A DNA stretch of 64,000 nt from Dehalococcoidia bacterium (lineage in GTDB: Bacteria; Chloroflexota; Dehalococcoidia; Lucifugimonadales; QGNO01): assembly GCA_965261825.1 (NCBI GenBank), contig CBDHED010000003.1, positions 135,090 to 199,089 on the forward strand, written 5' to 3'. The notes under the pieces were generated by a model that worked only from the letters and a program-made list of their open reading frames with translations, searched no databases and was not told the origin of the DNA. Below are positions 938-62,058 of this stretch, one piece after another. The position numbers were made by a program, and so were the translations under genes. Within the stretch, counting starts at the first letter, position 1. Each line of letters begins with the position of its first letter.

Positions 938-966
938 ACCCAGTTTATTGGAGCGTCTAAGGCTTG

Positions 967-9190: not shown

Positions 9191-11707
<2,517 letters not shown>

Positions 11708-11955
11708 CCTCAGAGTAATGCTCGTAACAGTCCGAGATCCCGCGCCGCTATCGGGATAGCATGGGTAGTCAAGCACCAGACTATCGTCCCCCGTGCATAG
11801 GGAGCTCACATTTGGCCACTTCCGTGGATACCTCATCATCTCTGAACAGTTACAATTGTGTTATTCTTTTGATAAAGATTTCACAAGTCTTGGGGTCAGA
11901 CGCCCACTAACAATCAGCCCTCTCCCGCAGGGGGTAGAACAGCAGGAGTTGCTCT

Positions 11956-34808: not shown

Positions 34809-34826
34809 GGAGGTGTGCCTGGCTGG

Positions 34827-34845
34827 TGTGATTCATCGAATCACA
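34827..34845. promoter_or_regulatory. perfect 8-3-8 palindrome, candidate operator
   Basis: TGTGATTC-ATC-GAATCACA, located in the spacer between the ACAD gene and the ABC binding-protein gene. Confidence 0.4.
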
Positions 34846-34904
34846 ATTCCGTGTTTCGACGGAAATCATGACCTGACCGAGGGAAATCGTACACCTGATT
34901 AATT

Positions 34905-34918
34905 GTGATTCTAATCAC
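34905..34918. promoter_or_regulatory. second palindrome sharing the GTGATT half-site
   Basis: GTGATT-CT-AATCAC. GGAAATC direct repeats lie between the two palindromes. Confidence 0.35.
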
Positions 34919-35057
34919 GATGCAAAGGACTTGACAAGCTCCGAAGTGCGTTTTAAGGTTAGGAACTTCAGAGGGTGCAGCTTGGTTGTTGGTATACCCC
35001 TGTTAAAACGAGGTGGGTCGATTTGCTAGTGTCGGAATCGACGAGTGATGAGGAGTC

Positions 35058-36923
35058 ATGATGTTGAAACCAATGCCGCAGTTACTAGTTCGCTTGATGA
35101 TAGGTGCCGCTCTGCTGTTGATGCTGGCATGTGGCACCGCCGAAGAAGCCACTCCGACTTCTTCGGCTCCCACTCCGACACCTACCTTATTCGTGCCTGC
35201 GGTGCCTGCGGTGCCGGTACTCGCAACGGCGACACCGACTCCGCTGCCCGGCGTTACTGCCGTACCAACAGCCACCTCCACACCGGTGCCGGTTGGCGAC
35301 CAGCCGAAGTACGGCGGCGTCCTTCGTTTCGCTAACTCTGCCCAGCATACGCTGGATACCATTGCAAACACCGGGTCCAACTACGGGGCCATGATAGGCG
35401 AGGCCGCCATCTTCAACCAGCTCGTCAGAGTCAACAACCAGGACTGGGTCACGGTCGAAGCTGACCTGGCCGAGTCGTTCTCTGTAAGCGGTGATGGTAC
35501 TGTATGGAAGTTCCAGATCCGCCAGGGAGTGGTGGACCATGAGGGCGACCCATATACCGTGGATGACGCCTACTGGGGTGTGCTCCGTATCATAGAACGT
35601 CCCAACGGCGTGCAGGCTTTTCGCCAGTCGTGCCTTCGCTCCTATCTAGAAGATGTCTGGGACGAGAACATGCAGGCGTTGCCCAACGGTGGAGCCGAGA
35701 TCACCGGCGCCAATGAGTTGACGGTGCGCCTCAAAGCGCCTGCGATGAGCTTTATTCCTTGCATCGCTAACCACGCAGTGGTGTTTCAGCCGTCCAAGTA
35801 TGTGAAGCTCATAGACACCGACCCTAGTGGAGAGACCAGGGATCTGACGGTGGCTGAATACGTAGGCACAGGTCCCTTCAAATTCAAGGACATGCGTTTG
35901 GACGACTTCTTCGCCGTGGAGCGGTACGATAACTACTTCAGAGAGGGGCTCCCATATCTGGACGGGATCGAGGTCTTCGTAATGCCCGAGCAGAGCACCT
36001 GGGAGGCCGCTTTTAGCACCGGCAGGATAGACTTCAACTCCAACTCCGTTGGCCCGTACGTAGTCTCTAACGCGACGGTAGACCAGATGAAACGCGTGCT
36101 CGGAGATACCGTGCAGTTCGACAGGGTCCTGGCCATGGGTCTCGGCGGCTTTGACGTAAACGTTCGCCGACCGCCTTTCGGTCCTGCCGAGGATCCCAAT
36201 GCAAAGAAACTCCGCTGGGCGATTCAGATAGCCATCGACCGAGGCGAGATCAACGAACTGGTCTACGATTCGAACGGCTACTTCACCTTCCCATACTTCG
36301 TGGGCTGGAGCTGGATACACACGGAGCAGGAGTGGTTGGCCAATTTCCAGGGTTTCGACCCCAGCCCAGAGGCCAAGGCCAGAGACATGGCAGAGGCCAG
36401 GCAGATCATGGAAGAGCTTGGCTACGGTCCGGACAACAGGCTGAGTTTCACCTTCCTGGCGAGTCCGACGGGTGTGACGCCCGCCTACGCCCAGGTGGTG
36501 GCCAGGCAGTTGCGCGACCTTTATATGGACATAGAGGTTGTAACCTCACCTGAGCGTACCGCGATATCCCGCACAGGCGATTTTGATATTGTCACATTCA
36601 TGAACGGTGCCAGCTTCCCTGACCCTGACACCTTCAATACAGATATCAACCTTGAGTGGGGCAAAGGTGGACAGCGGGTAAGTGGCTGGACGAACCCCGA
36701 ATGGCTGGCGATGCATGAACAGCAGGCGCTGGCTCAAACTTTGGAAGAACGCGCCGTTATCCTGCGGCAGATGGCACAGATCTGGCACGAAGACTCGTTG
36801 CGCATCGGCACTGTCCGGCCCGAGATGAATGAGGGGTGGAGGACGTATATCAAAGGGTGGATATCACCACCCTACCACTTCATTCAGCGTAACTTCGAGC
36901 GTGTCTGGATAGACAAGTCGTAG
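35058..36923 (+). CDS. ABC transporter substrate-binding lipoprotein, family 5 (peptide/opine/nickel type), copy 1
   Basis: Lipobox LMLACG, a Pro/Thr linker, then PKYGGVLRFA... and an SBP_bac_5-like body. 621 aa. Confidence 0.85.
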   Translation: MMLKPMPQLLVRLMIGAALLLMLACGTAEEATPTSSAPTPTPTLFVPAVPAVPVLATATPTPLPGVTAVPTATSTPVPVGDQPKYGGVLRFANSAQHTLDTIANTGSNYGAMIGEAAIFNQLVRVNNQDWVTVEADLAESFSVSGDGTVWKFQIRQGVVDHEGDPYTVDDAYWGVLRIIERPNGVQAFRQSCLRSYLEDVWDENMQALPNGGAEITGANELTVRLKAPAMSFIPCIANHAVVFQPSKYVKLIDTDPSGETRDLTVAEYVGTGPFKFKDMRLDDFFAVERYDNYFREGLPYLDGIEVFVMPEQSTWEAAFSTGRIDFNSNSVGPYVVSNATVDQMKRVLGDTVQFDRVLAMGLGGFDVNVRRPPFGPAEDPNAKKLRWAIQIAIDRGEINELVYDSNGYFTFPYFVGWSWIHTEQEWLANFQGFDPSPEAKARDMAEARQIMEELGYGPDNRLSFTFLASPTGVTPAYAQVVARQLRDLYMDIEVVTSPERTAISRTGDFDIVTFMNGASFPDPDTFNTDINLEWGKGGQRVSGWTNPEWLAMHEQQALAQTLEERAVILRQMAQIWHEDSLRIGTVRPEMNEGWRTYIKGWISPPYHFIQRNFERVWIDKS

Positions 36924-36932
36924 ACTGGAGAC

Positions 36933-36979
36933 ACGCAAGTGCCCTGGGGGTCATTGAACCTCCTCCGGGGCACTTGCGT
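36933..36979 (+). other. 12-bp-stem hairpin between the binding-protein and permease genes
   Basis: acgcaagtgccc (36933-36944) pairs with gggcacttgcgt (36968-36979). The loop is 23 nt. Confidence 0.5.
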
Positions 36980-37025
36980 ACACTGTGCCAACTAATGTGC
37001 CCCGGGTCTTGTGACGGAGGAGCAG

Positions 37026-37985
37026 GTGAAAAAATACATTGGCAAACGGCTTTTGCTATTTTTTCCAACCCTGACAGGCGTAGCTCTAGCTATCTTCATT
37101 CTGATGAGAATTGTGCCCGGAGACACGGCTGAGCTTATCCTGGCCGGACCGAGCGGCGAGGCGTCGTACACTCAAGAAGACCTGGATCGTTTGCGTGTGC
37201 AGCTTGGCTTGGACAAGCCCATATACGTTCAGTTCGTGCGGTGGGTAGCGGACCTGGCACGGGGCAATCTGGGGTATTCAGCAGCCAAGAAGAGGCCAGT
37301 AGCTGGCGAGCTACAGCGTCAGTTCCCTGTGACTCTACAGCTGGGACTCTTAAGCGTTATTGTGATCTGGAGCATCTCAATCCCTATCGGTGTCCTTGCT
37401 GCGGTTAGGCAGGACTCCTGGATCGATTATGTTTTTCGCGGTACAGCTATCGTTGGCCTTGCCATGCCAAGCTTCTTTGTTGGCCTGCTGGTAATCCTGG
37501 TGCTATCCCGGTTCTTCAACTGGCTACCGCCATTCGGATTTGTCCACGTATGGGATAATCCTACGATCAGTTTTCAGCAGCTGATCTTCCCGGCCGTTGC
37601 ACTTGGATTCAGTTCCAGCGGTACGCTGCTCAGGATGACTCGCACCCAGGTACTAGAGGTCTTGCGTGAAGACTACATTCGCACGGCGCGCGCCAAAGGA
37701 CTGAGCGGAAAAGTAGTGCTCTGGCGGCATGCCGTGCGCAACTCCCTACTGCCGGTAGTGACCATTGCAGGGACACAGATAGGGTTTCTGTTCTCTGGTA
37801 CGGTTGTAATTGAGCGGATTTTTAACATCCCAGGAGTAGGACGAGGGCTCCTAGAGGCGCTTACCGTTCGGGATCTGAATGTGATCCAAGCCTACATTAT
37901 GTATTTTGCGTTTATCGCCCTGGTCGCCAACCTTCTGGTGGACCTGACTTACGCCTGGTTGGATCCCAGGATACGTTACGGATAG
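37026..37985 (+). CDS. ABC transporter permease (DppB/OppB-like)
   Basis: The N-terminus (V)KKYIGKRLLLFFPTL parallels MRNYIIKRVLLFIPTI of the paralog at 48406. EAA-like motif RTARAKGLS. GTG 37026 with a GGAGG upstream. Confidence 0.85.
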   Translation: MKKYIGKRLLLFFPTLTGVALAIFILMRIVPGDTAELILAGPSGEASYTQEDLDRLRVQLGLDKPIYVQFVRWVADLARGNLGYSAAKKRPVAGELQRQFPVTLQLGLLSVIVIWSISIPIGVLAAVRQDSWIDYVFRGTAIVGLAMPSFFVGLLVILVLSRFFNWLPPFGFVHVWDNPTISFQQLIFPAVALGFSSSGTLLRMTRTQVLEVLREDYIRTARAKGLSGKVVLWRHAVRNSLLPVVTIAGTQIGFLFSGTVVIERIFNIPGVGRGLLEALTVRDLNVIQAYIMYFAFIALVANLLVDLTYAWLDPRIRYG

Positions 37986-38027
37986 CAAAAAGTGTAACAG
38001 TGAGCAGTTCTCACAAGGATCAGTTGC

Positions 38028-38933
38028 ATGCAGACCGAAATAACTGAGCCAATCCTAAGACGGCGAAGACGATCATATACGCTGTGGTCAAAGTATCCTA
38101 TGGCCCTGTTGAGGCTTACCAAGAAGAAGCCCCTGGGTGCTACCGGGCTATACATCCTCATCTTTGCTGTAATAGTGGCTGTGATTGGCCCGTCAATCGC
38201 TCCGTTCGATCCATGGGATACTCACCGAACCAGCCGGCTCGTGGCCCCAAGCAGCACCTTCTGGTTTGGAACTGACAGTCTGGGTAGGGACCTTCTTAGC
38301 AGGACTATTTATGGAGCTCGCATTTCTATATTCGTTGGTCTGGTAACGACTATTGCAGCGACGGTAATCGGCTCGTTTATAGGTGTAACCAGCGCCTATT
38401 TCGGCGGAAAGTTTGACCTCATTGTCCAACGATTCGTAGATGCACAAAGCGCTTTCCCATCACTTCTCCTAGCCCTGGCTCTAATGGCTGCATTTGGTGC
38501 TTCTCTGACCAGCGTCATGGTGGCCCTGATAATTATCTTTTCAAGCAGGGGTGTGCGGGTGATCCGCTCGCAATCACTTAGCATCAAAGAGACTCCCTAT
38601 ATCGAATCCGCTCGTGCCATCGGTTCAAGTGACTTCCGCATCATGTTGAGACATATACTCCCCAATACGTTTGGCCCTATGATGGTGGTGTCCACAACCT
38701 TGCTTGGTTCAGCCATTCTTCTGGAAGCATCCCTGAGCTTCCTGGGTGCAGGAGTGCCGGTAACCGTGATCTCCTGGGGCGGCATGCTCAGCGGCGATGT
38801 ATTGAAGGACTTCGCCGGCGCGCCTTGGATTGGGCTTTTCCCCGGACTTGCACTCTCAGCAGTGGTCTTTGGAGTTAACGTGTACGGGGATGCGCTAAGA
38901 GATATTTTAGACCCCAGACTACGCGGAAGATGA
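38028..38933 (+). CDS. ABC transporter permease (DppC/OppC-like)
   Basis: Motifs: WFGTDSLGRDLLSR, ESARAIGSS, DALRDILDPRLR. Confidence 0.85.
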   Translation: MQTEITEPILRRRRRSYTLWSKYPMALLRLTKKKPLGATGLYILIFAVIVAVIGPSIAPFDPWDTHRTSRLVAPSSTFWFGTDSLGRDLLSRTIYGARISIFVGLVTTIAATVIGSFIGVTSAYFGGKFDLIVQRFVDAQSAFPSLLLALALMAAFGASLTSVMVALIIIFSSRGVRVIRSQSLSIKETPYIESARAIGSSDFRIMLRHILPNTFGPMMVVSTTLLGSAILLEASLSFLGAGVPVTVISWGGMLSGDVLKDFAGAPWIGLFPGLALSAVVFGVNVYGDALRDILDPRLRGR

Positions 38934-39015
38934 GTTTCTCAAAGTGCTGCCTCTCGGTGGAAACTGGCGCCTCGCTTAGTGAACTGCCACTGTATACTAG
39001 GTTCCCGGTTCCGGT

Positions 39016-39055
39016 TGCAGATGCCAGTGGCGCGCACCCTCCACTGGCATCTGCA
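39016..39055 (+). terminator. 15-bp perfect hairpin after the permease genes
   Basis: tgcagatgccagtgg - 10-nt loop - ccactggcatctgca. No U-tract. Confidence 0.4.
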
Positions 39056-39083
39056 GCCTCATTCTCGCAGTGGGTAGAGATAT

Positions 39084-40433
39084 ATGACCAGACAACAGAC
39101 GTTTGAAGAAGCCATTGCCGAGTACCTGCAGCGATGCCAGGAGCAGATAGGCAAAGAGCGTATTGAAGGACTGCCTCCCGGGCCGCCGTCCCCGTACGAC
39201 CAGTCCGGGCCGCCATACGAATCACCGCTGCGGCTCGACGCGAGGACCATCCGCAACTACGCGCTCAGCATAGGCGACGATAATCCCCTTTTCACCGACC
39301 CGGAGTACGGCAAGCGGACTCGCTACGGCTCCCAGATTGCTCCCGGCCCCATCATGGTCGTGGCGCGGGCCGGTGGCGGCCAGGGGCCGATGCGGCCGCA
39401 AGGATACCCCGTAGCCGACTTTGTGGCAGGGACGGCATGGGAGTTTTTCGACGTCATCCATACGGGCACTGGACCCTTCCGGTCTTCCAAGACGGATCGC
39501 GAGGTATTCCAAAAACAGGGGTCGCGGGGTGGGCTTATCTTCCTCATATGCGAGCTTTTCTACTGGAACGCCCACGGCGATCTGCCCGCCAAAGCTTACG
39601 GAACTTTGATCATGGTGCCCACCGAGAGCATGGGCGGCTCCAGGGCTATGTCCGTGGACAGACTGGGCGAGCAGATGATGTACGACCGTGGCACACAGCG
39701 ATATGAGCCCGACGAGATCTCGGGATACATGGATATGATCGGCAAGCCCAAGCGGCGGGGAGCGGAGACCTTGTACTGGGAAGACGTGGAGGTCGGCCAG
39801 GAGCTGGATCCGCTGTTGCTGCCGCCCTGGACGTTGCAGGACCAGATAGCCAATAACCTGGCCCGCTCACTGATGGGACGCAATCCCGAAACCCGAGACG
39901 ATGAGCTGGCGTTCGAGCAGATATATCACAGCCTGCAATCCCATAGAGGCGGGGCTCGCACCCATCCTGTTTCCATGTGGCCTTGGACCCCCAATTCCGA
40001 GCACGAAGATGCCCTGCTGGCGGCCTACAGAGGCCAATCCGGGCCGTTTGACCACGGAGTGCAGCGCTTCCAGATACCGCAGCAGTTGCTCACCAACTGG
40101 ATGGGAGACGACGGTTTCGTTAGGCGTTATCAAACTGCCATCCGCCGTCCCGTCTACTATGGTGACGTGACTATCTACCGCGGCTGGATATCCAAGAAGT
40201 TCACGGAGCGGCAGACCGGGGAAAACGCACCGGGTGCAGCGCCCGGAGACGTGGAGTACAATGCCGTCGGAATAAGGATGGAAGGCGTCAATCAGACGGG
40301 AGAAGTGCAAGCCCAGGGTACCGCTGTGGTGTATCTGCCCTCTAGGAAGACCGGCCACGTCCATCTGCCGGTCCCGCACCTGGCACAGCCGCCTTACGTG
40401 CCTTATGAGACGTTCTATAGAGACTGGTTCTAA
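39084..40433 (+). CDS. double hot-dog fold (MaoC/FAS1-dehydratase-like) protein, paralog D
   Basis: Motifs: TFEEAIAEYLQRC, YALSIGDDNPLFTDPEYG, AYGTLIMVP. It ends YVPYETFYRDWF. Confidence 0.85.
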   Translation: MTRQQTFEEAIAEYLQRCQEQIGKERIEGLPPGPPSPYDQSGPPYESPLRLDARTIRNYALSIGDDNPLFTDPEYGKRTRYGSQIAPGPIMVVARAGGGQGPMRPQGYPVADFVAGTAWEFFDVIHTGTGPFRSSKTDREVFQKQGSRGGLIFLICELFYWNAHGDLPAKAYGTLIMVPTESMGGSRAMSVDRLGEQMMYDRGTQRYEPDEISGYMDMIGKPKRRGAETLYWEDVEVGQELDPLLLPPWTLQDQIANNLARSLMGRNPETRDDELAFEQIYHSLQSHRGGARTHPVSMWPWTPNSEHEDALLAAYRGQSGPFDHGVQRFQIPQQLLTNWMGDDGFVRRYQTAIRRPVYYGDVTIYRGWISKKFTERQTGENAPGAAPGDVEYNAVGIRMEGVNQTGEVQAQGTAVVYLPSRKTGHVHLPVPHLAQPPYVPYETFYRDWF

Positions 40434-40468
40434 CCAGCGTAATTCAGCGTCAACCGGGGAGGAGATTC

Positions 40469-41824
40469 ATGGTGACACAGACATTTGAAGAGGCCATAGC
40501 AGAGTACATAGAGCGCTGCTATGAGTCGGTGGGGAAGGAACGGGAGGAAGGGCATCCGCCGGGGCCGGGGACCCCGTACCCCATCGGCGAGCCTCCGTAC
40601 GAGGCTGCAATAAGGCTGGATGAAAGGACGGTGCGCAACTACGCCCTCAGCATAGGGAACACCAATCCTCTCTATACAGACCCTGAGTACGGAAGGCATA
40701 CCAGGTACGACGCCATGCTGGCGCCAAATACGGCCCTCATCCTAGTGCGCAGCCCCGGTGGCCAGGGGCCAACACGCCCTGAAGGCTATCCCGTGGGAGA
40801 CTTCTTCTCAGGGCTGGCCTGGGAGTTCTTCGACGTGCTGAGGGTTGGTGACGCACGCTTCAAGAATACCAAGAAGACAAGCGAGTTCTTCGAAAAATCG
40901 GGTTCCCGCGGACAGTTGCTTTTCCTCATTGAAGAGATCAAGTACTGGAATGCTCATGCAGACCTGGTGGGTAAGTGCTACGGCACCCTGATTCTGGTGC
41001 CCATCGAGAGCATGGGTGGAACAAGGACTATGAACGTGGAGCGCTTGGGCGAGCAGCTTATGTACGAACGTTCCACTTCCAAGTACAACCGGGAGCAGAT
41101 GGACGAATACGTGTCGTTTCTGGAAGGTAGTACCCGCAGGGGTTCCAAGACCCTGTACTGGGAGGACGTACAGGTCGGGGATAGACTTGGGCCTCTTGTA
41201 GTACCCCCGTTCACCTTGCTTGACCAGACAGTCCAACGGGTGGTGTCCGCTGCCGCTACGGGAAGGTACGGGACCTCAGGAGACGAACTGGCCTTCGAAC
41301 CGGTGTATCACCATAACCGTGAAGGGAGAGGCGGTTACGGCAGGGGCTTTGCCCATCCCGTAACCCGCTGGCCCCACGGACCCGGAGATGAGCATCAGGA
41401 CGCTCTCATGGCGGCTTATAGAGGCCAGCCAGGGCCGTTCGACGGCGGCCAGCACAGGTCTCAGCTGCCCCACAGGCTCATCAGCGACTGGATGGGAGAC
41501 AACGGTTTCATAAGGAGATACCAGTGCGCCCTGCGCAAGCCCGTCTACTATGGAGACACCACCTTCTACACCGCTGAAGTGGTGAAGAAGTTTAAGGAGT
41601 CCCAGGAAGGCGACAACGAGTCTGGAGGGCAGCCCGGCAAGGCGGAATACTTCGGGGTGGGCCTGAAACTGGAAGGCAAGAACCAGGTGGGAGAGACCCA
41701 GATGCAGGGTACTATTGCTGTGTACCTGCCATCTCGTGAGGGCGGCCCGGTCCAGTTGCCGGTACCGCACAAGGGCAATCCTCCTTACGTGCCTTACGAG
41801 ACCTTCTATAGAGACTGGTACTAG
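40469..41824 (+). CDS. double hot-dog fold (MaoC/FAS1-dehydratase-like) protein, paralog E
   Basis: GGAGGAG Shine-Dalgarno. YALSIGNTNPLYTDPEYG has Asn where the others have Asp. It ends YVPYETFYRDWY. Confidence 0.85.
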   Translation: MVTQTFEEAIAEYIERCYESVGKEREEGHPPGPGTPYPIGEPPYEAAIRLDERTVRNYALSIGNTNPLYTDPEYGRHTRYDAMLAPNTALILVRSPGGQGPTRPEGYPVGDFFSGLAWEFFDVLRVGDARFKNTKKTSEFFEKSGSRGQLLFLIEEIKYWNAHADLVGKCYGTLILVPIESMGGTRTMNVERLGEQLMYERSTSKYNREQMDEYVSFLEGSTRRGSKTLYWEDVQVGDRLGPLVVPPFTLLDQTVQRVVSAAATGRYGTSGDELAFEPVYHHNREGRGGYGRGFAHPVTRWPHGPGDEHQDALMAAYRGQPGPFDGGQHRSQLPHRLISDWMGDNGFIRRYQCALRKPVYYGDTTFYTAEVVKKFKESQEGDNESGGQPGKAEYFGVGLKLEGKNQVGETQMQGTIAVYLPSREGGPVQLPVPHKGNPPYVPYETFYRDWY

Positions 41825-41860
41825 GCTGAGTACCGACGGGCACGGAAAGGATACTTCCTT

Positions 41861-43198
41861 ATGAAGATGGACGGGATGCTCAGCGGAATACGCGTTCTGG
41901 ACTCCACGACGGCCGTGGCGATGCCTACGGCCATGCACATCCTGGCCGACATGGGGGCCGAGGTGATCAAGATAGAGACCCCTACCAGGGAGGAGTCCGG
42001 CCGGCGTGATGAGAGCTTTCAATACCTTCACCACAGTAAGAAAAGCATGACCATCAACCTGAAAGCCCCCGGCGGAGTCCAGCTTTACAAAGACCTGGTC
42101 GGCAATAGCGACGTGCTGGTAGAGAACAACCGCGCCGGAACCCTGGACCGCCTGGGCGTGGGCTACAGTGAGCTGATCAAGGTGAAGCCGGGCATCATCC
42201 TCCTTTCCAACACCGGATTTGGGCAGACCGGCCCGTGGAAGCGCTATGCCGGCATAGGAACGTTTCTGGAGCTGATTGCCGGAGTTAGCCACTTCACTGG
42301 CTATCCTGACCAGGGGCCCAGGCAGGTTGGCAACGCCTGGATAGACATACATGTAGCCTGGATGGCGGTCTTCTCCATACTGGCGGCGCTCCACTGGCGT
42401 GAGGAGAGCGGGGAAGGGCAGCACATAGACTTTTCCATGTACCAGGTTGGCGTTTCAACCCTGGGAGCGGAGGTACTTGATTTCATTGTAAACGGCAATA
42501 TAGGGGAGCAGATGGGGAACCGTCATCCGGTGCATGCCCCGCACGGTGTCTACCCCTGCCGCGGCGACGACAAGTGGATAGCCATAGCCGTAGAGAACGA
42601 TGAGGAGTGGCGCGCCCTGCTCAAGACTATGGGCCGCCCGGAATGGGCGGACAACCCCAAGTTTGAAGATGCTCTATCGCGCCATCACAACCAGGATGAA
42701 ATAGATGGCCATATCGCTGAGTGGACAAAGGGCTGGGACTTTTATGAGCTTATGCATCTGCTCCAAGGCAACGGCGTAACAGCCTCGGTAGTCCCCAACA
42801 CGGCTGAACTCATGACCGATCCCCACATGAAGGCCAGGGGCTTCTATGAAAAGTTGACCCACTCGCCGGAATCCGGGCTTGGCTCCCGGGTTTTAATCGG
42901 CAGGCCCTGGAAGGTCTCCAAGACACCGTCTAGGTTCCGCGACCCGGCCCCCACGCTGGGACAGGACAACGAGTACGTCATGAAAGAGGTCCTGAAGCGC
43001 ACGCAGGAAGAGATGGACCGGCTGTATGAAGCCGGAGTACTGGCCAGGCAAACCCATCAGGAGACGCCTCCATCGCCGCGAACGCCAGCGGCCCCTGCTC
43101 GACCCAGGCCTGGCGCTGCTAACCCTGCTCCCAGCTTGGAAGAGGGCACCCTTGCCTATACAGACACCGACTACCAGAAGCGCTTGGGGGTGGAGTGA
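41861..43198 (+). CDS. family-III CoA-transferase, alpha-type subunit, copy 2
   Basis: Close paralog of 967-2295 (GIRVLDSTTAVAMPTAMHILADMGAEVIKIE; AWIDIH). Same C-terminal GTLAYTDTDYQKRLGVE tail. Confidence 0.85.
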   Translation: MKMDGMLSGIRVLDSTTAVAMPTAMHILADMGAEVIKIETPTREESGRRDESFQYLHHSKKSMTINLKAPGGVQLYKDLVGNSDVLVENNRAGTLDRLGVGYSELIKVKPGIILLSNTGFGQTGPWKRYAGIGTFLELIAGVSHFTGYPDQGPRQVGNAWIDIHVAWMAVFSILAALHWREESGEGQHIDFSMYQVGVSTLGAEVLDFIVNGNIGEQMGNRHPVHAPHGVYPCRGDDKWIAIAVENDEEWRALLKTMGRPEWADNPKFEDALSRHHNQDEIDGHIAEWTKGWDFYELMHLLQGNGVTASVVPNTAELMTDPHMKARGFYEKLTHSPESGLGSRVLIGRPWKVSKTPSRFRDPAPTLGQDNEYVMKEVLKRTQEEMDRLYEAGVLARQTHQETPPSPRTPAAPARPRPGAANPAPSLEEGTLAYTDTDYQKRLGVE

Positions 43199-44421
43199 TG
43201 GGCGGTAGCGTGTTCGGGAAGTTCCGCGTCGTGGACATGACTAGGGGCATAGCGGGACCCTTTGCCAGCAAGCTCCTGGCGGACTATGGAGCAGACGTGA
43301 TCAAGGTCGAACCACCTCAGGGCGACCCTTCAAGGCAGATGGGCCCCTTCGCCGGAGGCGACCCTCACCCTGAAAAGAGCCTGCTCTTTCTCTATCTCAA
43401 TTGCAATAAACGGGGAGTAACCCTGGACGTTGAAACCGGCGCCGGTAGAAAGCTCTTCCTTGACCTAGTGAAGACGGCGGATGTCCTGATGGAGGACTAC
43501 ACCCCGGGATTTCTGGATAGCTTGCAGTTGGGCTACCCGCACCTGGAAGAGATCAACCCAAAGCTGGTGATGACCTCTATTACACCGTTTGGCCAAACGG
43601 GGCCGTACAAGAGCTACAAGGGTAATGACCTTGTCCACTATGCCATGGGCGGCATGATGTACACCAGCGGTGCATACCACAGGGAACCACTTAAGCATGG
43701 CCACCCGCAAAGCCTCTATCTAGGAGGCATAGTAACCGCTTACGTCACCTCGGCCGCGCTCTTTGCCAGGAGGACACTGGGCCAAGGACAGCACGTTGAT
43801 CTGTCTCTATCGGAGGTCATGGCCGCCGACCATTACCAACCTGTGGCCAGGTATGCCTTTTCAGGGGGAGTAACGCGGCGCGCCCCCAAGAGCGATACCG
43901 GCCAGGAGAAGGGCACCGGCTTCCTGGGCATTGTCCCGGCAAAGGACGGGTACGTTAGGGCCTCCATCAGCCCTCCACAAAGGCTCTATTCTCGCTCCGG
44001 GCCTCAACCCTGGCCTGAGTATGCCGGCTTGCTGGGGCATCCGGAAATTGGTGATGCCCTGGCCGAAGCAACCAGTACACAGGAGATCGATGAGATACTA
44101 CTGCCTGTGATAAGAGAAATGCCCAAGATGGAGTACTACCACAGGTTGATGACAAACGAATGGCTGGCGGCGGCGGCACAGACTCCGCAGGACTTGGCCA
44201 ATTGCCCGCAGCTTGAGGAACGGCAGTACTTCACGGAGGTGGAGCACCCCGTTATTGGCCGTGTAAAATTCCCTGGAGAAGTGGTGAGATTGCCCAGCTC
44301 TCCCTGGAGCCTTCGATTTCCCGCCCCTCTCCTTGGCCAGCATAACAGGGCCGTCTTCTGCGGAGAGCTGGGCCGCAGCAAGGACGATCTTGTTGGGCTT
44401 AGACAGGTGGGAGCAATCTGA
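43198..44421 (+). CDS. family-III CoA-transferase-like, beta-type subunit, copy 2
   Basis: Paralog of 2292-3518. ATG 43198 overlaps the alpha stop (TGATG). GTG 43195 is an alternative start. Confidence 0.85.
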   Translation: MGGSVFGKFRVVDMTRGIAGPFASKLLADYGADVIKVEPPQGDPSRQMGPFAGGDPHPEKSLLFLYLNCNKRGVTLDVETGAGRKLFLDLVKTADVLMEDYTPGFLDSLQLGYPHLEEINPKLVMTSITPFGQTGPYKSYKGNDLVHYAMGGMMYTSGAYHREPLKHGHPQSLYLGGIVTAYVTSAALFARRTLGQGQHVDLSLSEVMAADHYQPVARYAFSGGVTRRAPKSDTGQEKGTGFLGIVPAKDGYVRASISPPQRLYSRSGPQPWPEYAGLLGHPEIGDALAEATSTQEIDEILLPVIREMPKMEYYHRLMTNEWLAAAAQTPQDLANCPQLEERQYFTEVEHPVIGRVKFPGEVVRLPSSPWSLRFPAPLLGQHNRAVFCGELGRSKDDLVGLRQVGAI

Positions 44422-44489
44422 ACTCCCTCTGAACCCAGGGTGAGCCCGTTCAGCCGGTGCGCCCACCCTGATGTCGCGCTGGACTCCTG

Positions 44490-45341
44490 CTAGGAACGCG
44501 TCTCCCCTGTGACGTGCCGCTGCCGCTTTTCCAAGAAAGCCGGTGTGGCGTCGTCACTATCCTTGCTCAACTGGCCTACCATGAAGTTCAGGGTATATTG
44601 CATGTCCCAGGCTGCCTGTTCAGGCAGATCTCTGCTCTTGACAGCGAACTCTTTGAGCATTCGCACCGCTACGGGTGGCATCTCACATATCCTCTGGGCA
44701 AGCTCTTCGCAGCGAGCCATCAGTTGGTCGTGGGGCACAGTCTCATATATAAGGCCAATTCGCTCTGCTTCCTTGGCGTCTATCGGCTCATCGGTCAGAA
44801 GCATCTTCATGGCGTGAGCATAGTTGAGCTGGCGTATCAGGTGTGTTGCGGAAGGCCCACTGCCAATTCCACCCCGATTGGAAAGCAAGGCGAAGTAGAA
44901 GCGGGCGTGTTCCTCACAGGCTATACGAATGTCTACGGTGTTCAGCAGCATGTAAAGCCCGGCGCCGGCGGCCCATCCGTTGACTGCCGCTATCACGGGC
45001 TTCCACACGCGTGGGAAGTCAACTCCTCCCCCAAAGACCACAATGTCGCGCCCGTTCACCGTGCCGGGTCTTGGCCAGAAGAAGTTGTCAGCCTGCTGAT
45101 GCCGCACGTCGTCGTAGGACATGCCGGGAGGCGGAGGCTGGATGTGATGACCGGCAGAGAAATGCCTGTCGCCAATTCCGGTTAGGATCATCACCCGCAT
45201 ATCTTTGTCCTGCCAGAAGTCCCGGTAGGCTTCTCCCATCTCCTCCATGACCTGGGAGTCCATCACGTTGGCCTTCGTCGGGTTGTTGACGGTTAGATAG
45301 GCAACGTTCTCCTTCTTTTCGTAAATCGTCTTCATGGGCAT
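44490..45341 (-). CDS. enoyl-CoA hydratase/isomerase (crotonase) family protein, copy 1
   Basis: Motifs: VAYLTVNNPTKANVMD, ILTGIGDRHFSAGH, AAVNGWAAGAGLYMLL. Confidence 0.85.
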   Translation of the reverse strand: MPMKTIYEKKENVAYLTVNNPTKANVMDSQVMEEMGEAYRDFWQDKDMRVMILTGIGDRHFSAGHHIQPPPPGMSYDDVRHQQADNFFWPRPGTVNGRDIVVFGGGVDFPRVWKPVIAAVNGWAAGAGLYMLLNTVDIRIACEEHARFYFALLSNRGGIGSGPSATHLIRQLNYAHAMKMLLTDEPIDAKEAERIGLIYETVPHDQLMARCEELAQRICEMPPVAVRMLKEFAVKSRDLPEQAAWDMQYTLNFMVGQLSKDSDDATPAFLEKRQRHVTGETRS

Positions 45342-45474: not shown

Positions 45475-46200
45475 CTACTGAGGATGTTGGGAAAGCAAAT
45501 TAACCCGCTCTGCATGGCTGAGTACCCCACCCGCCTTCAACGCTTCGATGATCGCCTCCGTTCTGGAGCGGACGTTCATCTTTAGCAGGATGTGTGTGAC
45601 GTGAAGCTGGACCGTTCTCAGGCTGACGTGTAACTGAGAGGCCACTTCCGTGTTGGTTAGTCCCAGAAGCATCAGGCGTAACACCTCCTGCTCTCTTGGC
45701 GAAAGAGATTCAAAGCCACGGTTGTGTCCCGCAGCACCGGAGATGTGAGTCATGCTGAAATCGACGCTTGCTCTGGCCTCCGCTCCCAGAACCGTTATTC
45801 CCCGCGCGGCAGCCCGCAGGGCGCATTCAAAGGCCGCTCTTTCAATATCCAGTGAGAGGTAGCCAAGCACGCCGGCTTGCAAGCATTCATTCACCAATAC
45901 GGGATCCTGGCGCGCCCTGGTCGTCAAAACCACGATTTTGGAAGAGAGCCCTGCGTCGCTGGCAAACCACCTTGCCAGCGTTGCCGGGTTGAAGTCATCC
46001 GGGTTTGCTCCCACCACTACAAGGTCCGGCTGCAACAGCTTGACCAGCTCGTAACCCTCGTCAAAGTTGTTGGACTCACCCAGTACGGCGAAGGCGGGCA
46101 TCTCATCCACGAAGCTGGTAATCGCTTCCCGCATCATGGTGCTTCTGATGAGGATGACTACCCCGCACGAACCCGTAGCAGCTCGACCGTTCCTCTTCAT
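45475..46200 (-). CDS. LuxR/GerE-family regulator with a degenerate (pseudo-)receiver domain
   Basis: C-terminal HTH LSPREQEVLRLMLLGLTNTEVASQLHVSLRTVQLHV. The N-terminal CheY-like fold lacks the DD pair, the phospho-acceptor Asp and the conserved Lys. ATG 46200 with GGAGGGG Shine-Dalgarno. Confidence 0.8.
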   Translation of the reverse strand: MKRNGRAATGSCGVVILIRSTMMREAITSFVDEMPAFAVLGESNNFDEGYELVKLLQPDLVVVGANPDDFNPATLARWFASDAGLSSKIVVLTTRARQDPVLVNECLQAGVLGYLSLDIERAAFECALRAAARGITVLGAEARASVDFSMTHISGAAGHNRGFESLSPREQEVLRLMLLGLTNTEVASQLHVSLRTVQLHVTHILLKMNVRSRTEAIIEALKAGGVLSHAERVNLLSQHPQ

Positions 46201-46426
46201 GGCACCCCTCCATTTGGATGGACAATGCTCAAGCTTGGGGGCAGAATACCTACGCATTTGTGAAATGTCAAAAATGTGCAGCTATACTTCGCTTTTTCGC
46301 AAAAACACATACGTATCGGTACGTATTGCAAAGATGGGCTAGTTTAACTAACGTGCAGAATAGCTTTGCCGTTATTTTTTCATCACCGCAACGCAGGGTG
46401 AAACGCTGATGCAGTGGGAGGTTTGT

Positions 46427-48289
46427 ATGGACGCTTATCGCATTCTCCGCAATAGATTGTGGATCACCGCCATCATTTCAGTGGGCTTGATTGCGCTGCT
46501 GGCCTGTGGCTCCACGGAGGAGGCAACACCGACGCCTACGGCAACGGTTGCCGCGCCCGTCAGCGCCGCCACGCCTACACCTGAACCGCCAATGGCCGAT
46601 GAACCGGTCTACGGCGGCGTGGCAAGGATTGCCGACAGAATACGGGCACAATCCTTTGAGCTTACCCACCTTGGTGGAGGCCTGCAGCCTGCCAATGGCA
46701 TCGGCCCAATCGTCTGGTCGGCGCTGATCAGAGAAAGCATCGTGGACCGTGTAAGCTTGGAGGGCGATCTTGCCGAATCCTGGACAGTAAGCGCGGACGG
46801 TACGGAGTGGAAGTTCAAGATTCGTGAAGGGATCGTGGACCACAACGGAGATCCATACGGTGCGGAAGAGGTACGTTATCTTTTGCACCGCATGGTCGAC
46901 CGGCCCAACGACGCCCCTTACTCGCAGGGCGGCGGCTGCATGAAGACGGCGATAAAGGAACCCACCAGCGCCGGCGGCGCTGAGGTTAGCGGGCCGAACG
47001 AGGTTACCATTCGACTCAAAGGTCCCACTTCATGGTTTGCCGCTTGTGTCAGCAGCGGATACGTGATGTTCGGCCCTGCCAAGCAGTACAAGGCAATCGA
47101 CGACACGGGCGAGTGGAGACTCCTGGACTTCGATAAAGATGAGGTAATAGGCACCGGGCCTTTCAAGGCCGTGGATCTACTGGAGGAGTCAAGGGCCGTT
47201 TACGAAAAGAACGAAAGGTACTTCAAAGAAGGACGGCCATACCTTGACATGGTGGAGATATTCCACGCCACTGAGCGCTCCACGGTGATCGCCGCCATGT
47301 TGGCCGGGCAGAACGACCTGATTGCCAATACCTGTTGCGACGGATTCCGCGCCGAGTTGACTCCCATAAAGAAAAGCCATGGAGCCAAGATTGTTATGCC
47401 CATCGCGGTAGGCTACGGGCAGGCGGGGATCATGGTGAACCTCAGGCGTGCTCCATTTGGTCCGCTGGACGACCCAACGGCGCGCACCATCCGCAAGGCT
47501 ATGCAGCTCTGGTACGACAGGGACGAGAGCGGGCAGGCGGGATACCAGGGCATGTACATGAAACCGTACTACTACTACCCCGGCTGTGCTCATTGCGAGT
47601 TGCCAGGCTTCGATTGGATATACACGCCGGAGCAGTGGGAAGAGTTCCCCGGATTCAATCCCGACACCAAGGAAGCGGACATAGCGGAAGCCAAGCGTTT
47701 GATGGAATCCCTGGGGTACGGCCCGGACAATATGCTGGAGTTCGACCTGGCCGTGTCCGCCAGCGGCAGCACGCGCCGCCAGGCTGACGCCGCCATTCCC
47801 AAGATGGCCCAGATTTATCTGAAGCCAAACGTACGGGTCAGCCAGATTGGCCAGGGCGAGATGGGAGACGATACCACGCAGATGGTGTTCTTCGTCCGCG
47901 GTTTCGGACTGCTTGACCCGCAGCAGTACGACGACCAGCTATACCTGCCCTTTGAGGTCTACCAGAACTCCAACTGGAACCGCTACGACAACCCTGAATA
48001 CCTCAGGCTGCACAGCCTGGCCGCCACCACCGTAGACCAGGCGGAGCGCGGACGCCTCTACAGAGAGATAGTCGATGTCCTGTACGAGGATGCCGGCATA
48101 TTGCCAAGCAGCCGTGCAACCCCCATACATCCCTTCAACGGTGCTTGGCGCGGCTGGACGCCCAAGACAAGGCACGTTCAGAATTCAAGCATTGAAAACG
48201 TCTGGATACATCCCAGCGGTGAGGCCAGCCAAGAGGTGCTTGAGCAGTACGACGTCTTCACCAGGTTTCCTGACCGGTTCCCTCAATAG
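46427..48289 (+). CDS. ABC transporter substrate-binding lipoprotein, family 5, copy 2
   Basis: Lipobox LLACGS, a Thr/Pro linker, PVYGGVARIA... Paralog of 35058-36923. ATG 46427 has GGGAGG upstream. Confidence 0.85.
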   Translation: MDAYRILRNRLWITAIISVGLIALLACGSTEEATPTPTATVAAPVSAATPTPEPPMADEPVYGGVARIADRIRAQSFELTHLGGGLQPANGIGPIVWSALIRESIVDRVSLEGDLAESWTVSADGTEWKFKIREGIVDHNGDPYGAEEVRYLLHRMVDRPNDAPYSQGGGCMKTAIKEPTSAGGAEVSGPNEVTIRLKGPTSWFAACVSSGYVMFGPAKQYKAIDDTGEWRLLDFDKDEVIGTGPFKAVDLLEESRAVYEKNERYFKEGRPYLDMVEIFHATERSTVIAAMLAGQNDLIANTCCDGFRAELTPIKKSHGAKIVMPIAVGYGQAGIMVNLRRAPFGPLDDPTARTIRKAMQLWYDRDESGQAGYQGMYMKPYYYYPGCAHCELPGFDWIYTPEQWEEFPGFNPDTKEADIAEAKRLMESLGYGPDNMLEFDLAVSASGSTRRQADAAIPKMAQIYLKPNVRVSQIGQGEMGDDTTQMVFFVRGFGLLDPQQYDDQLYLPFEVYQNSNWNRYDNPEYLRLHSLAATTVDQAERGRLYREIVDVLYEDAGILPSSRATPIHPFNGAWRGWTPKTRHVQNSSIENVWIHPSGEASQEVLEQYDVFTRFPDRFPQ

Positions 48290-48306
48290 GCCTAATGGGC
48301 TAGAGT

Positions 48307-48352
48307 TAATGCTGGACCACCTGCGATCAACTTCGCAGGTGGTTCAGCATTA
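48307..48352 (+). other. 20-bp-stem hairpin between the binding-protein and permease genes
   Basis: taatgctggaccacctgcga - tcaact - tcgcaggtggttcagcatta, with one G:U pair. Confidence 0.55.
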
Positions 48353-48405
48353 GAAATGACTATGGGTTATAATCAAGTAACCGCCACCGGCGAACCTACC
48401 GGACC

Positions 48406-49365
48406 ATGAGAAACTACATCATCAAGCGGGTGTTGCTCTTCATCCCCACCATTCTGGGGGTTTCCGTATTCGTCTTTGGCGCTTTGCGCGTACTGCCCGG
48501 TGACGTGGCGGAGTTGATTCTGACCGGGGGAGACCCCGACGTGGTGATCTCCGAGGATATGAAGGAGGAGCTGAGAAAAAAGACCGGGTTGGACAAGCCG
48601 ATACACATCCAGTACATCGACTGGATATGGGGAGTGACCAGGTTTGATCTCGGCAACTCCTGGAATACGGACAGGCCAATTACCCGCAACCTCAAACGCC
48701 AGCTCCCCGTCACCCTCCAGCTCGCCGTGGCGTCCCTCACCCTGGTTGTCCTCATTGCTATCCCCATAGGCATACTCGCCGCCCTCTACCAGGATAGGTG
48801 GCCCGATTACCTCCTGCGGGGCACCGCTGTCCTGACTAGTGCAATGCCGGGCTTCTTTGCCGCGATACTGATAGTGCTGATCCTTGCTGCCGGGTTCGGC
48901 TGGCTGCCTCCTCTCAGGTTCTACAACCTCTGGGAAAGGCCGTGGGATTCCATGACTCAGCTGTTTTTCCCCGCGGTTGCCCTGGGATTGCTGGGAACTG
49001 CAACGCTGCTGCGAATGACAAGGGCCCAGATGCTGGAGGTACTACGTGAAGACTACGTCCGCACCGCCAGGGCCAAGGGCTTGTCCGAGCGATTGGTGAT
49101 AACGCGCCACTCCATGCGCAATGCCCTGATCCCCGTGGTTACCGTCATAGGATTCCAGGTGGCGATCCTACTGGGCGGCACCGTAGTGATAGAGGTTATC
49201 TTCAGCCTACCCGGCATGGGCGAACAGCTGGTGCGGGCCGTCCTATTGAGGGACTTCCCCGTGGTGCAAACTTACGTTCTCTATCTTGTGTTCATCTCGC
49301 TGCTCGTCAATCTCATAGTAGATATCTCCTACGCCTGGTTGGATCCACGGATTAGGTATGCGTAA
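48406..49365 (+). CDS. ABC transporter permease (DppB/OppB-like), copy 2
   Basis: Motifs: MRNYIIKRVLLFIPTILG, RTARAKGLSERLV, WLDPRIRYA. Confidence 0.85.
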   Translation: MRNYIIKRVLLFIPTILGVSVFVFGALRVLPGDVAELILTGGDPDVVISEDMKEELRKKTGLDKPIHIQYIDWIWGVTRFDLGNSWNTDRPITRNLKRQLPVTLQLAVASLTLVVLIAIPIGILAALYQDRWPDYLLRGTAVLTSAMPGFFAAILIVLILAAGFGWLPPLRFYNLWERPWDSMTQLFFPAVALGLLGTATLLRMTRAQMLEVLREDYVRTARAKGLSERLVITRHSMRNALIPVVTVIGFQVAILLGGTVVIEVIFSLPGMGEQLVRAVLLRDFPVVQTYVLYLVFISLLVNLIVDISYAWLDPRIRYA

Positions 49366-49389
49366 CCAGCCGTTCAGTTCAGGGGGCCT

Positions 49390-50292
49390 ATGAGCACGGA
49401 AGGCGCAACCGGCGAACTCGCACTGCAAAGCCAGCAGCTGAGACTCTTGAGGCCGGTCGTTGCTCTTTGGGGATTTGCCCGCAGAAAACCGCTGGGCGCC
49501 GCCGGCTTGGCCATTTTGGTATTTGCAACCGTGATCGCTTTCACCGGCTCCATTATCGCACCCTACGACCCGTTCGAGACCAGGCTGGACATAGCGTTGC
49601 AGGGTCCAACCGCTCAGCACTGGTATGGTATGGATAACCTGGGACGGGACGTATTCAGCCGCACCATTATTGGCACAAAAGTGTCCCTCTACGTAGGCCT
49701 TACAACCATGCTGATGGCCACGGCCATAGGGATGTTCCTCGGGGTCTCCAGCGCGTACCTGGGCGGAAAGTACGACCTCATTGTACAGAGGTTCATTGAT
49801 GGAATTGTCGCCATACCATCCTTGCTGCTCGCCTTGACTCTGGTCGCAGCATTCGAAATCGGGATGGAAAACGTAATACTTGCCCTTACCGTAGTCAATA
49901 CGCCGCGGATTACTCGCGTAGTGAGATCATCCGCCCTCACCATCTTGGCAATGCCATATATAGAGGCGGCTCGGACCATTGGCTCTAGCAACTTTCGCAT
50001 AATGCTGAGACACATTACGCCCAACACCTTCGCACCACTGGTCGTGGTGGCTTCTGCCGCGGTGGGGTCAATCATCACCGCTGAAGCCAGCCTGAGCTTT
50101 CTGGGTCTAGGCGTCCCCTACGACACACTTTCCTGGGGAGGTCTGCTGGGGGGAGATACCAGGCAGCTCTTCATTTCGGCTCCATGGATGGCCTTTGGAC
50201 CAGGGGTGAGCCTGACTCTGGTAGTCTTCGGCTCGGCTATCTTTGCTGACGCCCTGCGGGACGTTTTCGATCCCAAGCTTAGAGGGCGTTGA
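49390..50292 (+). CDS. ABC transporter permease (DppC/OppC-like), copy 2
   Basis: Motifs: WYGMDNLGRDVFSR, EAARTIGSS, DALRDVFDPKLRGR. Confidence 0.85.
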   Translation: MSTEGATGELALQSQQLRLLRPVVALWGFARRKPLGAAGLAILVFATVIAFTGSIIAPYDPFETRLDIALQGPTAQHWYGMDNLGRDVFSRTIIGTKVSLYVGLTTMLMATAIGMFLGVSSAYLGGKYDLIVQRFIDGIVAIPSLLLALTLVAAFEIGMENVILALTVVNTPRITRVVRSSALTILAMPYIEAARTIGSSNFRIMLRHITPNTFAPLVVVASAAVGSIITAEASLSFLGLGVPYDTLSWGGLLGGDTRQLFISAPWMAFGPGVSLTLVVFGSAIFADALRDVFDPKLRGR

Positions 50293-56178: not shown

Positions 56179-56301
56179 AATGTAATCCTCCTTCTCTCTT
56201 TTTCTGTCCTGTGGACGGCTCCAGTGTGCCAAGGAGGCGTGTACATTCCCGACTACAGTTGTGCTACATTTGGACTGTATTGCATAGCAGAGATGTAACA
56301 C

Positions 56302-59444: not shown

Positions 59445-59468
59445 ACATACCCTCATCAGGAGCACATA

Positions 59469-62038: not shown

Positions 62039-62058
62039 ACAAACAGGAGGAGAATCCC

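Follow-up and report, generated by a model that had tools for sequence, protein, structure and literature searches.

We analysed a stretch of 64,000 nucleotides from a Dehalococcoidia bacterium (contig CBDHED010000003.1, positions 135,090 to 199,089 of the forward strand; hereafter the window, numbered from its first nucleotide), in which positions 39084–45341 encode two tandem double hot-dog proteins, two adjacent family III coenzyme A (CoA)-transferases and a crotonase-fold protein. An earlier sequence-only reading had placed five genes here, the crotonase gene convergent to the others, and both the open reading frames (ORFs) and Pfam agree with it. The domain assignments of that reading likewise held when the profile searches were run (PF02515, PF13452 and PF00378 matched, PF01575 marginally). 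In what follows, CTa and CTb denote the first and second family III transferase gene of each pair, HD the 450-aa hot-dog protein, ECH the crotonase-fold protein and L-numbers the homologous loci. The five genes (copy 2) and their relatives in the window are as follows.

39084–40433, + strand: hot-dog protein D, 449 aa (PF13452, E 1.1e-07; marginal PF01575; double hot-dog model)
40469–41824, + strand: hot-dog protein E, 451 aa, 57% identical to D (PF13452, marginal PF01575)
41861–43198, + strand: CTa of copy 2, 445 aa, with a C-terminal tail of ~45 aa (full-length PF02515, E 4.5e-103; catalytic Asp)
43198–44421, + strand: CTb of copy 2, 407 aa, or 408 aa from GTG 43195 (full-length PF02515, E 2.5e-85; Leu in the Asp column)
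44490–45341, − strand: crotonase-fold protein without both catalytic Glu, 283 aa (PF00378, E 3.4e-39)
2–937, + strand: hot-dog paralogue whose 5' part lies outside the window, leaving the C-terminal 311 aa (frame open from base 2; 52–54% identical to D and E)
964–2295, + strand: CTa of copy 1 (PF02515; 64% identical to the CTa at 41861; catalytic Asp and tail)
2292–3518, + strand: CTb of copy 1, overlapping its CTa by 4 nt (PF02515; 70% identical to the CTb at 43195; Leu in the Asp column)
4163–5524, + strand: hot-dog paralogue, 453 aa, 645 nt 3' of the CTb of copy 1 (PF13452; 68% identical to E)
27949–29286, − strand: fifth hot-dog paralogue, 445 aa, adjoining an LplA/LipB-like gene (Pfam-scanned ORF)
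58533–59444, + strand: Glu-less crotonase upstream in copy 3 (PF00378; paralogue identity; residue alignment)
59469–60815, + strand: CTa of copy 3 (PF02515; catalytic Asp; tail motif)
60812–62038, + strand: CTb of copy 3 (PF02515; Leu in the Asp column)
62059–62958, + strand: Glu-less crotonase downstream in copy 3 (PF00378; residue alignment)
42995–43198, 2150–2295 and 60680–60815, + strand: C-terminal tails of the three window CTa (conserved tail motif)

The gene order is HD-CTa-CTb-HD in copy 1, HD-HD-CTa-CTb-ECH in copy 2 (ECH convergent) and ECH-CTa-CTb-ECH in copy 3. All three types of part occur together solely in the copy at 39084–45341, copy 1 having no crotonase and copy 3 no hot-dog protein. 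Paralogues within the window share 50–68% identity for the hot-dog proteins, 49–64% for CTa, 54–70% for CTb and 48–69% for the crotonases, and this recurrence of parts is far beyond chance; CTa and CTb share just 25–30% with one another. The sequence-only reading had stated that the same parts recur at 1–3518 and 58533–62958. They do so as paralogues of 48–70% identity, but the composition differs from copy to copy, and the fifth hot-dog gene (27949–29286) had gone unlisted.

The co-directional genes of copy 2 are tightly spaced, with gaps of 35–36 nt and overlapping codons. The overlap of the CTa stop with the CTb start, also recognized earlier, lies in the junction GTG GAG TGA TG, in which the start codon of CTb is GTG 43195, with an overlap of 4 nt, or ATG 43198, with one of 1 nt, the latter being the start chosen by the gene callers (407-aa protein P0121) and in the sequence-only reading; CTa and CTb overlap in this manner in all three window copies. 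No RNA family was found in an Rfam scan of the window, and the gap of 645 nt between the CTb of copy 1 and the next hot-dog gene (3519–4162) contained no convincing ORF and no Rfam match. Promoter and terminator counts for 33–47 kb equalled the shuffle expectation and thus do not inform the limits of the operon.

The putative two-subunit transferase

All six transferase genes match PF02515 at 280–346 bits (cut-off 23.3). In a search of all PDB sequences, the top match of CTa was chain B of the benzylsuccinate CoA-transferase (9fn0_B, 4.1e-53, vs 3.9e-21 for 9fn0_A) and that of CTb was chain A (9fn0_A, 2.3e-52, vs 2.1e-26 for 9fn0_B), a reciprocal subunit pattern that holds for all three window pairs at 30–34% identity. 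In a joint alignment, the catalytic column is occupied by Asp in the three CTa, in 9fn0_B, in SUGCT (9br7) and in the Frc-like 10uh, and by Leu in the three CTb and Tyr in 9fn0_A. We take this residue, which in CTa is the D of the motif NAWID, to be the equivalent of Asp169 of Frc, on which the acyl-anhydride intermediate is formed. Asp is absent from this column in all 116 full-length CTb homologues. The parallel with BbsEF drawn in the sequence-only reading for an alpha/beta transferase was hence confirmed, with CTa pairing with 9fn0_B, CTb with 9fn0_A, and the Asp present solely in CTa and chain B. A BbsEF-like heteromer is a well-supported prediction from these alignments, and the fact that a nucleophile-less CTb is always translationally coupled to a nucleophile-bearing CTa argues strongly, if indirectly, for this heteromer being obligate.

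Across 80 metagenomic CTb loci, CTb directly adjoins a CTa-type gene in most cases, in the bbsE-bbsF order (CTb then CTa), and the order of the window (CTa then CTb) is confined to the closest relatives. CTa is the constant neighbour of CTb in these loci, while acyl-CoA dehydrogenases are the commonest further partner. Natural tandem fusions of CTb and CTa into single ORFs of ~850 aa were also encountered on metagenome contigs (L142, L152, L155 and L158); DddD is likewise a two-domain protein.

The CTa tail consists of a variable linker rich in Pro and, after it, the conserved motif E[DEN]GTLxxxDxDY[KQ]xxLG. It occurs where the gene order is CTa then CTb, the motif being present in SAR202-type CTa and absent from BbsF and from distant CTb-CTa pairs. 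Locus L088 displays a divergent form of the tail and has a methyltransferase gene between CTb and CTa. NCBIfam returned sub-threshold matches only for the transferases, to which no characterised orthologue could be assigned, as well as for the crotonases and the neighbouring acyl-CoA dehydrogenase (ACAD), and no NCBIfam model matched any hot-dog paralogue scanned, three of them full-length and one the partial copy. All equivalog scores were far under cut-off; the high identity to characterised enzymes that the sequence-only reading had named as a ground for its own refutation was not seen.

Hot-dog proteins and Glu-less crotonases

A PDB sequence search with a single hot-dog protein gave marginal matches only (E 0.01), and a profile was needed. 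The AlphaFold2 model, built from a 46-sequence alignment, comprises two predicted hot-dog domains (pLDDT 88.1, pTM 0.89) and matched 4v12, 5i7n, 4e3e, 8hgn, 8huc and 1s9c with a Foldseek probability of 1.00. Its structural neighbours include MSMEG_6754 (4v12), 5i7n, Chloroflexus Mch (4e3e), MeaC (8hgn) and PaIch (8huc, 8khg), and further MFE-2 hydratase 2, the fungal fatty acid synthase dehydratase and Rv0216 (2bi0); identity to the solved MaoC-type hydratases is 9–14% (9–12% for 4e3e, 8hgn and 8huc). This proximity to mesaconyl- and itaconyl-CoA hydratases, together with a Rhizobium locus that includes a CitE/HpcH-type lyase (see below), backs the logic of a CoA-transferase combined with a MaoC-type hydratase that had been proposed from the sequence.

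The MaoC dyad consists of a water-activating His and an Asp, and in ChsH2 a Tyr replaces the His and provides a pocket for bulky substrates, leaving one active site per heterodimer (PMC11321319). The N-terminal half of the window proteins contains the hydratase-2-like motif GDDNPL[F/Y], with the His lost, and the hot-dog profile matches the 178–187-aa MaoC chain of 4w78/4wnb (E 3e-4), which has Tyr for His; the two entries name this chain differently (ChsH1 in 4w78, ChsH2 in 4wnb), and published work identifies it as non-catalytic ChsH2. The C-terminal half retains a His, H307, at the position of the NPLH His of 4v12, and its G325 aligns with the glycine of the HG motif. Residues E306, H307, D309, D323, G325 and R328 are invariant across 46 diverse hot-dog sequences, and H307, D323, G325 and R328 are kept in a 30%-identity branch of ~350–410 aa. 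Alignment and model together suggest that the hot-dog protein is probably a fused pseudo-heterodimer whose single site, variant in its residues, is probably active.

Searched with a profile, 1.84 billion representatives yielded 338 clusters at E ≤ 1e-30, with only ~10 full-length forms of 440–470 aa. The family is mostly of SAR202/Chloroflexota origin, with outliers in Allosphingosinicella, Myxococcaceae, Actinomycetota, Lysobacter and one Asgard archaeon, and one metagenome-assembled genome (MAG) holds at least 10 copies. A neighbour-joining tree resolved many deep SAR202 paralogue clades and placed D and E in different ones. An obligate heteromer of D and E was considered and rejected, the tree having no consistent split into upstream and downstream clades and the E-type clade including solo members. 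A divergent subfamily of 385–420 aa, here HD', has lost His307 and is always found immediately upstream of an HD; no such His-less partner was found when it was searched for in the window.

Among 37 SAR202-type hot-dog loci, a transferase pair was present in 6 and an adjacent crotonase in 1, other neighbours being Dpp-type transporter genes (~6), amidases (6) and an LplA/LipB-like gene (3), and many hot-dog genes being solo. The sequence-only reading had spoken of a fixed triad of hot-dog protein, two-subunit transferase and crotonase, a description at odds with these counts and with the differences between the three window copies; in related genomes the transferase pair is conserved, but the co-localisation of the triad is not. 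The arrangement HD-HD-CTa-CTb-ECH is conserved in L005 and L006 at 89–90% nucleotide identity, and the order HD'-HD-x-CTa-CTb was found in L007, L008, L025 and L035 at 52–60% protein identity. In L007 the x gene (11391–12350) encodes an ornithine cyclodeaminase/mu-crystallin family protein, which hints at substrates derived from amino or imino acids.

Members of the ~350-aa branch lie beside CoA-transferase pairs in Alphaproteobacteria, Chloroflexota, Thermodesulfobacteriota and Dormibacterota, and in Rhizobium sp. CF080 the 30%-identity branch occurs with a CTb/CTa pair followed by a CitE/HpcH-type lyase. The same ~350-aa branch includes HD-adenylation-carrier-thioesterase fusions of ~1,000–1,270 aa (P0388, P0402, P0412, P0480 and P0461 among others), and one MmgE/PrpD-HD fusion was also seen; these fusions are Rosetta-stone links to acid activation and to di-/tricarboxylate chemistry. 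Outside Chloroflexota (L001–L003, L036, L037 and L040, from Allosphingosinicella, Myxococcaceae, Pseudonocardiaceae, Lentzea and Lysobacter), the gene for the 450-aa hot-dog protein is in every case preceded by that of a His-less HD' paralogue. Carrier-protein and adenylation genes stand beside HD'-HD in Allosphingosinicella and Myxococcaceae (L001–L003), where Pfam outlines an apparent biosynthetic cluster with a carrier protein, an adenylation domain (fused to HD' in L003) and FemAB-like, glutamine-synthetase-like, DHQ-synthase-like, cupin, SDR and WelO5-like proteins. Such repeated ties to acid-activating devices support an action of the hot-dog proteins on a thioester made by a neighbouring enzyme. 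The fifth hot-dog gene of the window lies beside a gene for a 251-aa LplA/LipB-like catalytic-domain protein (27168–27923, − strand), a pairing that recurs in L005 (3–2063), L024 and L026 (Dehalococcoidia), and this protein may represent a second type of partner that uses thioesters together with the family.

The window crotonases match PF00378 at 133–160 bits (cut-off 27). The catalytic Glu residues of enoyl-CoA hydratase are Glu144 and Glu164 in the rat enzyme. The first position is occupied by Tyr in all three window copies and in 120 of 120 homologues, and the second aligns with Leu or Ser; in HMMER alignments both positions are Glu in the solved hydratases 5zai and 3rsi, and a MAFFT column confirms the first only. 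In place of the hydratase Glu pair the crotonases carry a conserved His/His/Tyr, and the signature DRHF[SC]AGH is nearly invariant among the homologues; its FSAGH portion presumably recalls methylmalonyl-CoA decarboxylase, a resemblance we treat as a lead only. Because both catalytic Glu are missing, these proteins are probably not ordinary hydratases, and the hydrating role assigned to the system by the sequence-only reading is doubtful as far as the crotonases are concerned. The Glu-less family has >1,500 members, many from TARA and other marine metagenomes. Locus L087 (ECH-CTa-CTb-ECH-ECH) keeps the ECH-CTa-CTb-ECH order of copy 3, and CTb-CTa-ECH is found in three SAR202 contigs (L089–L091), one of them from TARA. 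The linkage of crotonase and transferase pair is thus at least as robust as that of hot-dog protein and transferase pair.

Surrounding genes and proposed function

The closest public DNA, the Dehalococcoidia MAG DAOUJH01 (isolate S32_256), is syntenic with the window at 89–90% nucleotide identity, and the protein homologues are named SAR202 or Chloroflexota. The neighbours of copy 2 are as follows.

33615–34808, + strand: ACAD, probable module member (three ACAD Pfam domains)
35058–38933, + strand: Dpp/Opp-type ABC uptake cassette, with binding protein 35058–36923 and permeases 37011–37985 and 38028–38933 (PF00496, PF00528)
45475–46257, − strand: LuxR-type response regulator (GerE and weak Response_reg match)
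46409–50292, + strand: second Dpp/Opp-type cassette, context only (Pfam)
50347–51771 and 51899–53326, + strand: two amidases, context only (Pfam)

In the 90%-identical locus L005 the ACAD gene lies directly upstream of hot-dog D, the cassette that separates them in the window being absent (a 4.26-kb indel, window 34815–39071 vs L005 9976–9990). Both ABC cassettes of the window are without an ATPase gene. Other SAR202 loci likewise have amidase and SBP_bac_5 genes close to hot-dog genes. An SDR gene divergent from ACAD (32353–33110, − strand) is split, with residues 1–51 in frame −3 and 53–253 in frame −2, by either a frameshift or an assembly error; it is intact in L005 (253 aa). No thiolase, CitE-type lyase, thiolase/DUF35, BbsCD pair or glycyl-radical enzyme was detected among the 50 window ORFs scanned with Pfam. 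Two overlapping ORFs further downstream (54434–55690 and 55648–56301, − strand) contain consecutive vWF_A/YfbK-type pieces (PF12450 positions 7–43 and 43–91) and look like one gene broken by a frameshift. An HTH_31 ORF (56302–57276) and a TPR-repeat ORF (57233–58213) overlap by 44 nt in different frames and may be a single regulator gene, also split by a frameshift.

With slightly better than even confidence, we read the window as containing three catabolic modules, paralogous to one another and each centred on a BbsEF-like family III CoA-transferase of two subunits, for the CoA-transferase-initiated use of imported organic acids. The heteromer would take CoA from a thioester, possibly succinyl-CoA or the product-CoA of the module itself, and pass it to an organic acid, probably substituted or dicarboxylic, that would be taken up via the adjacent Dpp/Opp-type transporter and possibly be freed from amides by the neighbouring amidases. 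The thioester would then be changed at its alpha/beta positions by the hot-dog and/or crotonase partner, with accessory enzymes that vary between modules, among them perhaps the ACAD and the frameshifted SDR upstream. In the hot-dog protein, the His-less N-terminal half would bind the substrate like ChsH2 and the C-terminal half would use His307 and Gly325 to hydrate or dehydrate a bulky acyl-CoA, or to carry out a related beta-elimination on it. The crotonase-fold protein may perform other oxyanion-hole chemistry, e.g. decarboxylation, isomerisation, or ring or thioester cleavage. Since no thiolase or lyase is linked, the module might operate as an ATP-free CoA shuttle that activates its substrate, transforms it and passes the CoA to the next one, as CaiB/CaiD do. 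The substrate class is hinted at only by the kinship with BbsEF, the invariant Arg, the links to MmgE/PrpD and CitE, and the nearby transporter and amidase genes, which point to dicarboxylic, bulky and possibly amide-derived acids. The multiplication of the modules reflects the known habit of enzyme-family expansion in SAR202 and not a fixed three-part machine; it is not new in itself, the multiplication of CaiB-type genes in this clade having already been reported by Landry et al. (2017, PMC5395668).

Several observations weigh against this interpretation. Most SAR202 hot-dog genes are not beside transferases (the pair is present in 6 of 37 loci) and may therefore use unlinked partners or other thioesters. 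The position of the canonical MaoC dyad Asp (His-5) is Thr in the C-terminal half, so that activity is not assured. Crotonase 44490 is encoded convergently to the operon, in the same direction as the LuxR-type regulator, in whose transcription unit it may lie. Formation of the transferase heteromer is deduced solely from comparing sequences, and the idea of a CoA shuttle leans largely on the absence of thiolase and lyase within the 64-kb window.

SAR202 is among the most abundant bacterial clades of the dark ocean and is thought to oxidise long-lived dissolved organic carbon. Judged from their sequences, many of its CaiB-type transferases appear to be obligate heteromers like BbsEF, in which a catalytic subunit is paired with an Asp-less one. 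New here are this pairing, the tail of CTa, and the variant hot-dog proteins and Glu-less crotonases as conserved partners; both partner families are conserved in SAR202 contigs, the crotonase also on many TARA and other marine contigs, and the modules provide concrete, expressible enzyme sets with which to test which compounds SAR202 attacks. No new principle is involved, modules of a CoA-transferase with a hydratase or crotonase being established (Bbs, Cai, Ict/Ich, Mct/Mch). We hold it rather unlikely, as a bolder extension, that Asp/Asp-less pairs, 450-aa hot-dog proteins and Glu-less crotonases make up a previously unrecognised ATP-independent CoA shuttle ('activate, transform, release') by which the abundant SAR202 of the ocean would remodel recalcitrant carboxyl-rich dissolved organic matter, with crotonase and hot-dog protein doing chemistry new for their folds (decarboxylation, ring opening, beta-elimination on bulky polycarboxylates) and the CTa tail coupling the transferase to its partner enzyme.

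Alternatives and known systems

It is improbable, in our judgement, that the genes form no module and are independent members of very large SAR202 paralogue families that lie close by gene density alone. CaiB/BaiF transferases are indeed described as the most prominent other paralogous family in SAR202, after monooxygenases, with 62 genes in five single-amplified genomes (Landry et al., 2017, PMC5395668). The ten or more hot-dog genes of one MAG, the four CoA_transf_3 genes within 15 kb in L089, the solo state or other neighbours of most hot-dog genes and the varying composition of the three copies would fit such a scenario as well. It fares poorly against the tight co-directional spacing with 35–36 nt gaps and overlapping codons, the conservation of HD-HD-CTa-CTb-ECH in L005 and L006, of HD'-HD-x-CTa-CTb in L007, L008, L025 and L035, of ECH-CT-CT-ECH in L087 and of CT-CT-ECH in L089–L091, and the linkage or fusion of the hot-dog family to acid-activating enzymes across phyla. 

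Quite improbable is a C5-dicarboxylate route of the itaconate/mesaconate type (Ict/Ich/Ccl or Mct/Mch), or a part of the 3-hydroxypropionate bi-cycle proposed for SAR202. These systems, too, combine a family III CoA-transferase with a double hot-dog MaoC-type hydratase, their hydratases (Mch, MeaC and PaIch) are among the closest structural neighbours of our model, the distant hot-dog branch of Rhizobium sp. CF080 comes with a CitE-type lyase beside CTb/CTa, the invariant Arg328 could bind a distal carboxylate, and a 3-hydroxypropionate cycle in SAR202 is discussed by Landry et al. (PMC5395668). Their transferases are single-subunit enzymes, however, and their hydratases share only 9–14% identity with the window hot-dog protein, which is ~100 aa longer and bears a different catalytic motif (EHxD ... 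FDxG); the NCBIfam models for succinyl-CoA:mesaconate CoA-transferase and 2-methylfumaryl-CoA isomerase scored 201 bits vs 700 and 58 vs 725, no lyase of the CitE type was found in the window ORFs scanned, and the number of hot-dog paralogues in a single MAG (at least 10) argues for many substrates and not for one central pathway.

We think it very improbable that the hot-dog proteins lack catalytic activity and act as scaffolds or bind substrate for a partner in the manner of Rv0216 or ChsH2, or that they are thioesterases and not hydratases. The dyad Asp is missing from both halves, Rv0216 (2bi0) is among the structural neighbours, and the His-less HD' that is always beside an HD indicates that inert partners exist in the family. 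Against this, HD keeps the very His that HD' has lost, H307, G325, E306, D309, D323 and R328 are invariant across the 46 diverse sequences, and the retention of His, Asp323, Gly and Arg in the 30%-identity branch is conservation typical of an active site. The window protein would share with ChsH1-ChsH2 and MFE-2 hydratase 2 a division of labour in which a His-less unit (Tyr/Phe) forms the pocket and a His-bearing unit the catalytic site, a design tied to bulky substrates. It differs in that both units are fused in one 450-aa chain, the canonical Asp is not conserved, the window has no DUF35 domain or aldolase partner, and the sequence similarity is marginal (profile E 3e-4).

Scarcely credible is true benzylsuccinate/arylalkylsuccinate beta-oxidation of anaerobic hydrocarbon metabolites by BbsEFGH orthologues, for although the BbsEF subunits (two different family III subunits from adjacent genes, with the Asp in one subunit type) are the best solved relatives of CTa and CTb, and ACAD, a crotonase-fold protein and an SDR lie nearby (cf. 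BbsG, BbsH and BbsCD), identity is 30–34%, the gene order is reversed (F-like then E-like), the ~45-aa CTa tail is not in BbsF, the window crotonase is without the hydratase Glu, a hot-dog protein is added, no thiolase/DUF35 pair or glycyl-radical (benzylsuccinate) synthase was found among the window ORFs scanned, and the host is a marine Chloroflexota of a clade that is mainly pelagic and aerobic. An account of the Bbs pathway is given in PMC10818641.

Returning to the favoured reading of CoA-transferase-initiated modules, its proposed CoA economy resembles that of CaiB/CaiD (also AcuN/AcuK), in which a family III CoA-transferase and a crotonase-fold enzyme act together and CoA can cycle from product to substrate without ATP. 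The window proteins score far under the NCBIfam cut-offs of these enzymes (CaiB 124 vs 413; CaiD 101 vs 500), E. coli CaiB is a homodimer and CaiD keeps both Glu. A literature search on SAR202 with MaoC, enoyl-CoA hydratase or heteromeric transferases retrieved only Landry et al. (2017, PMC5395668), which deals with the same clade and transferase superfamily and with acyl compounds entering as CoA thioesters without ATP; the available sections of that paper describe no Asp/no-Asp pairing, no 450-aa hot-dog family and no pair-linked Glu-less crotonases. Because identities are low, curated models fail and genomic contexts differ, the modules of the window are members of none of these pathways; in their workings they would be like Bbs, Ict/Ich, Mct/Mch and CaiB/CaiD.

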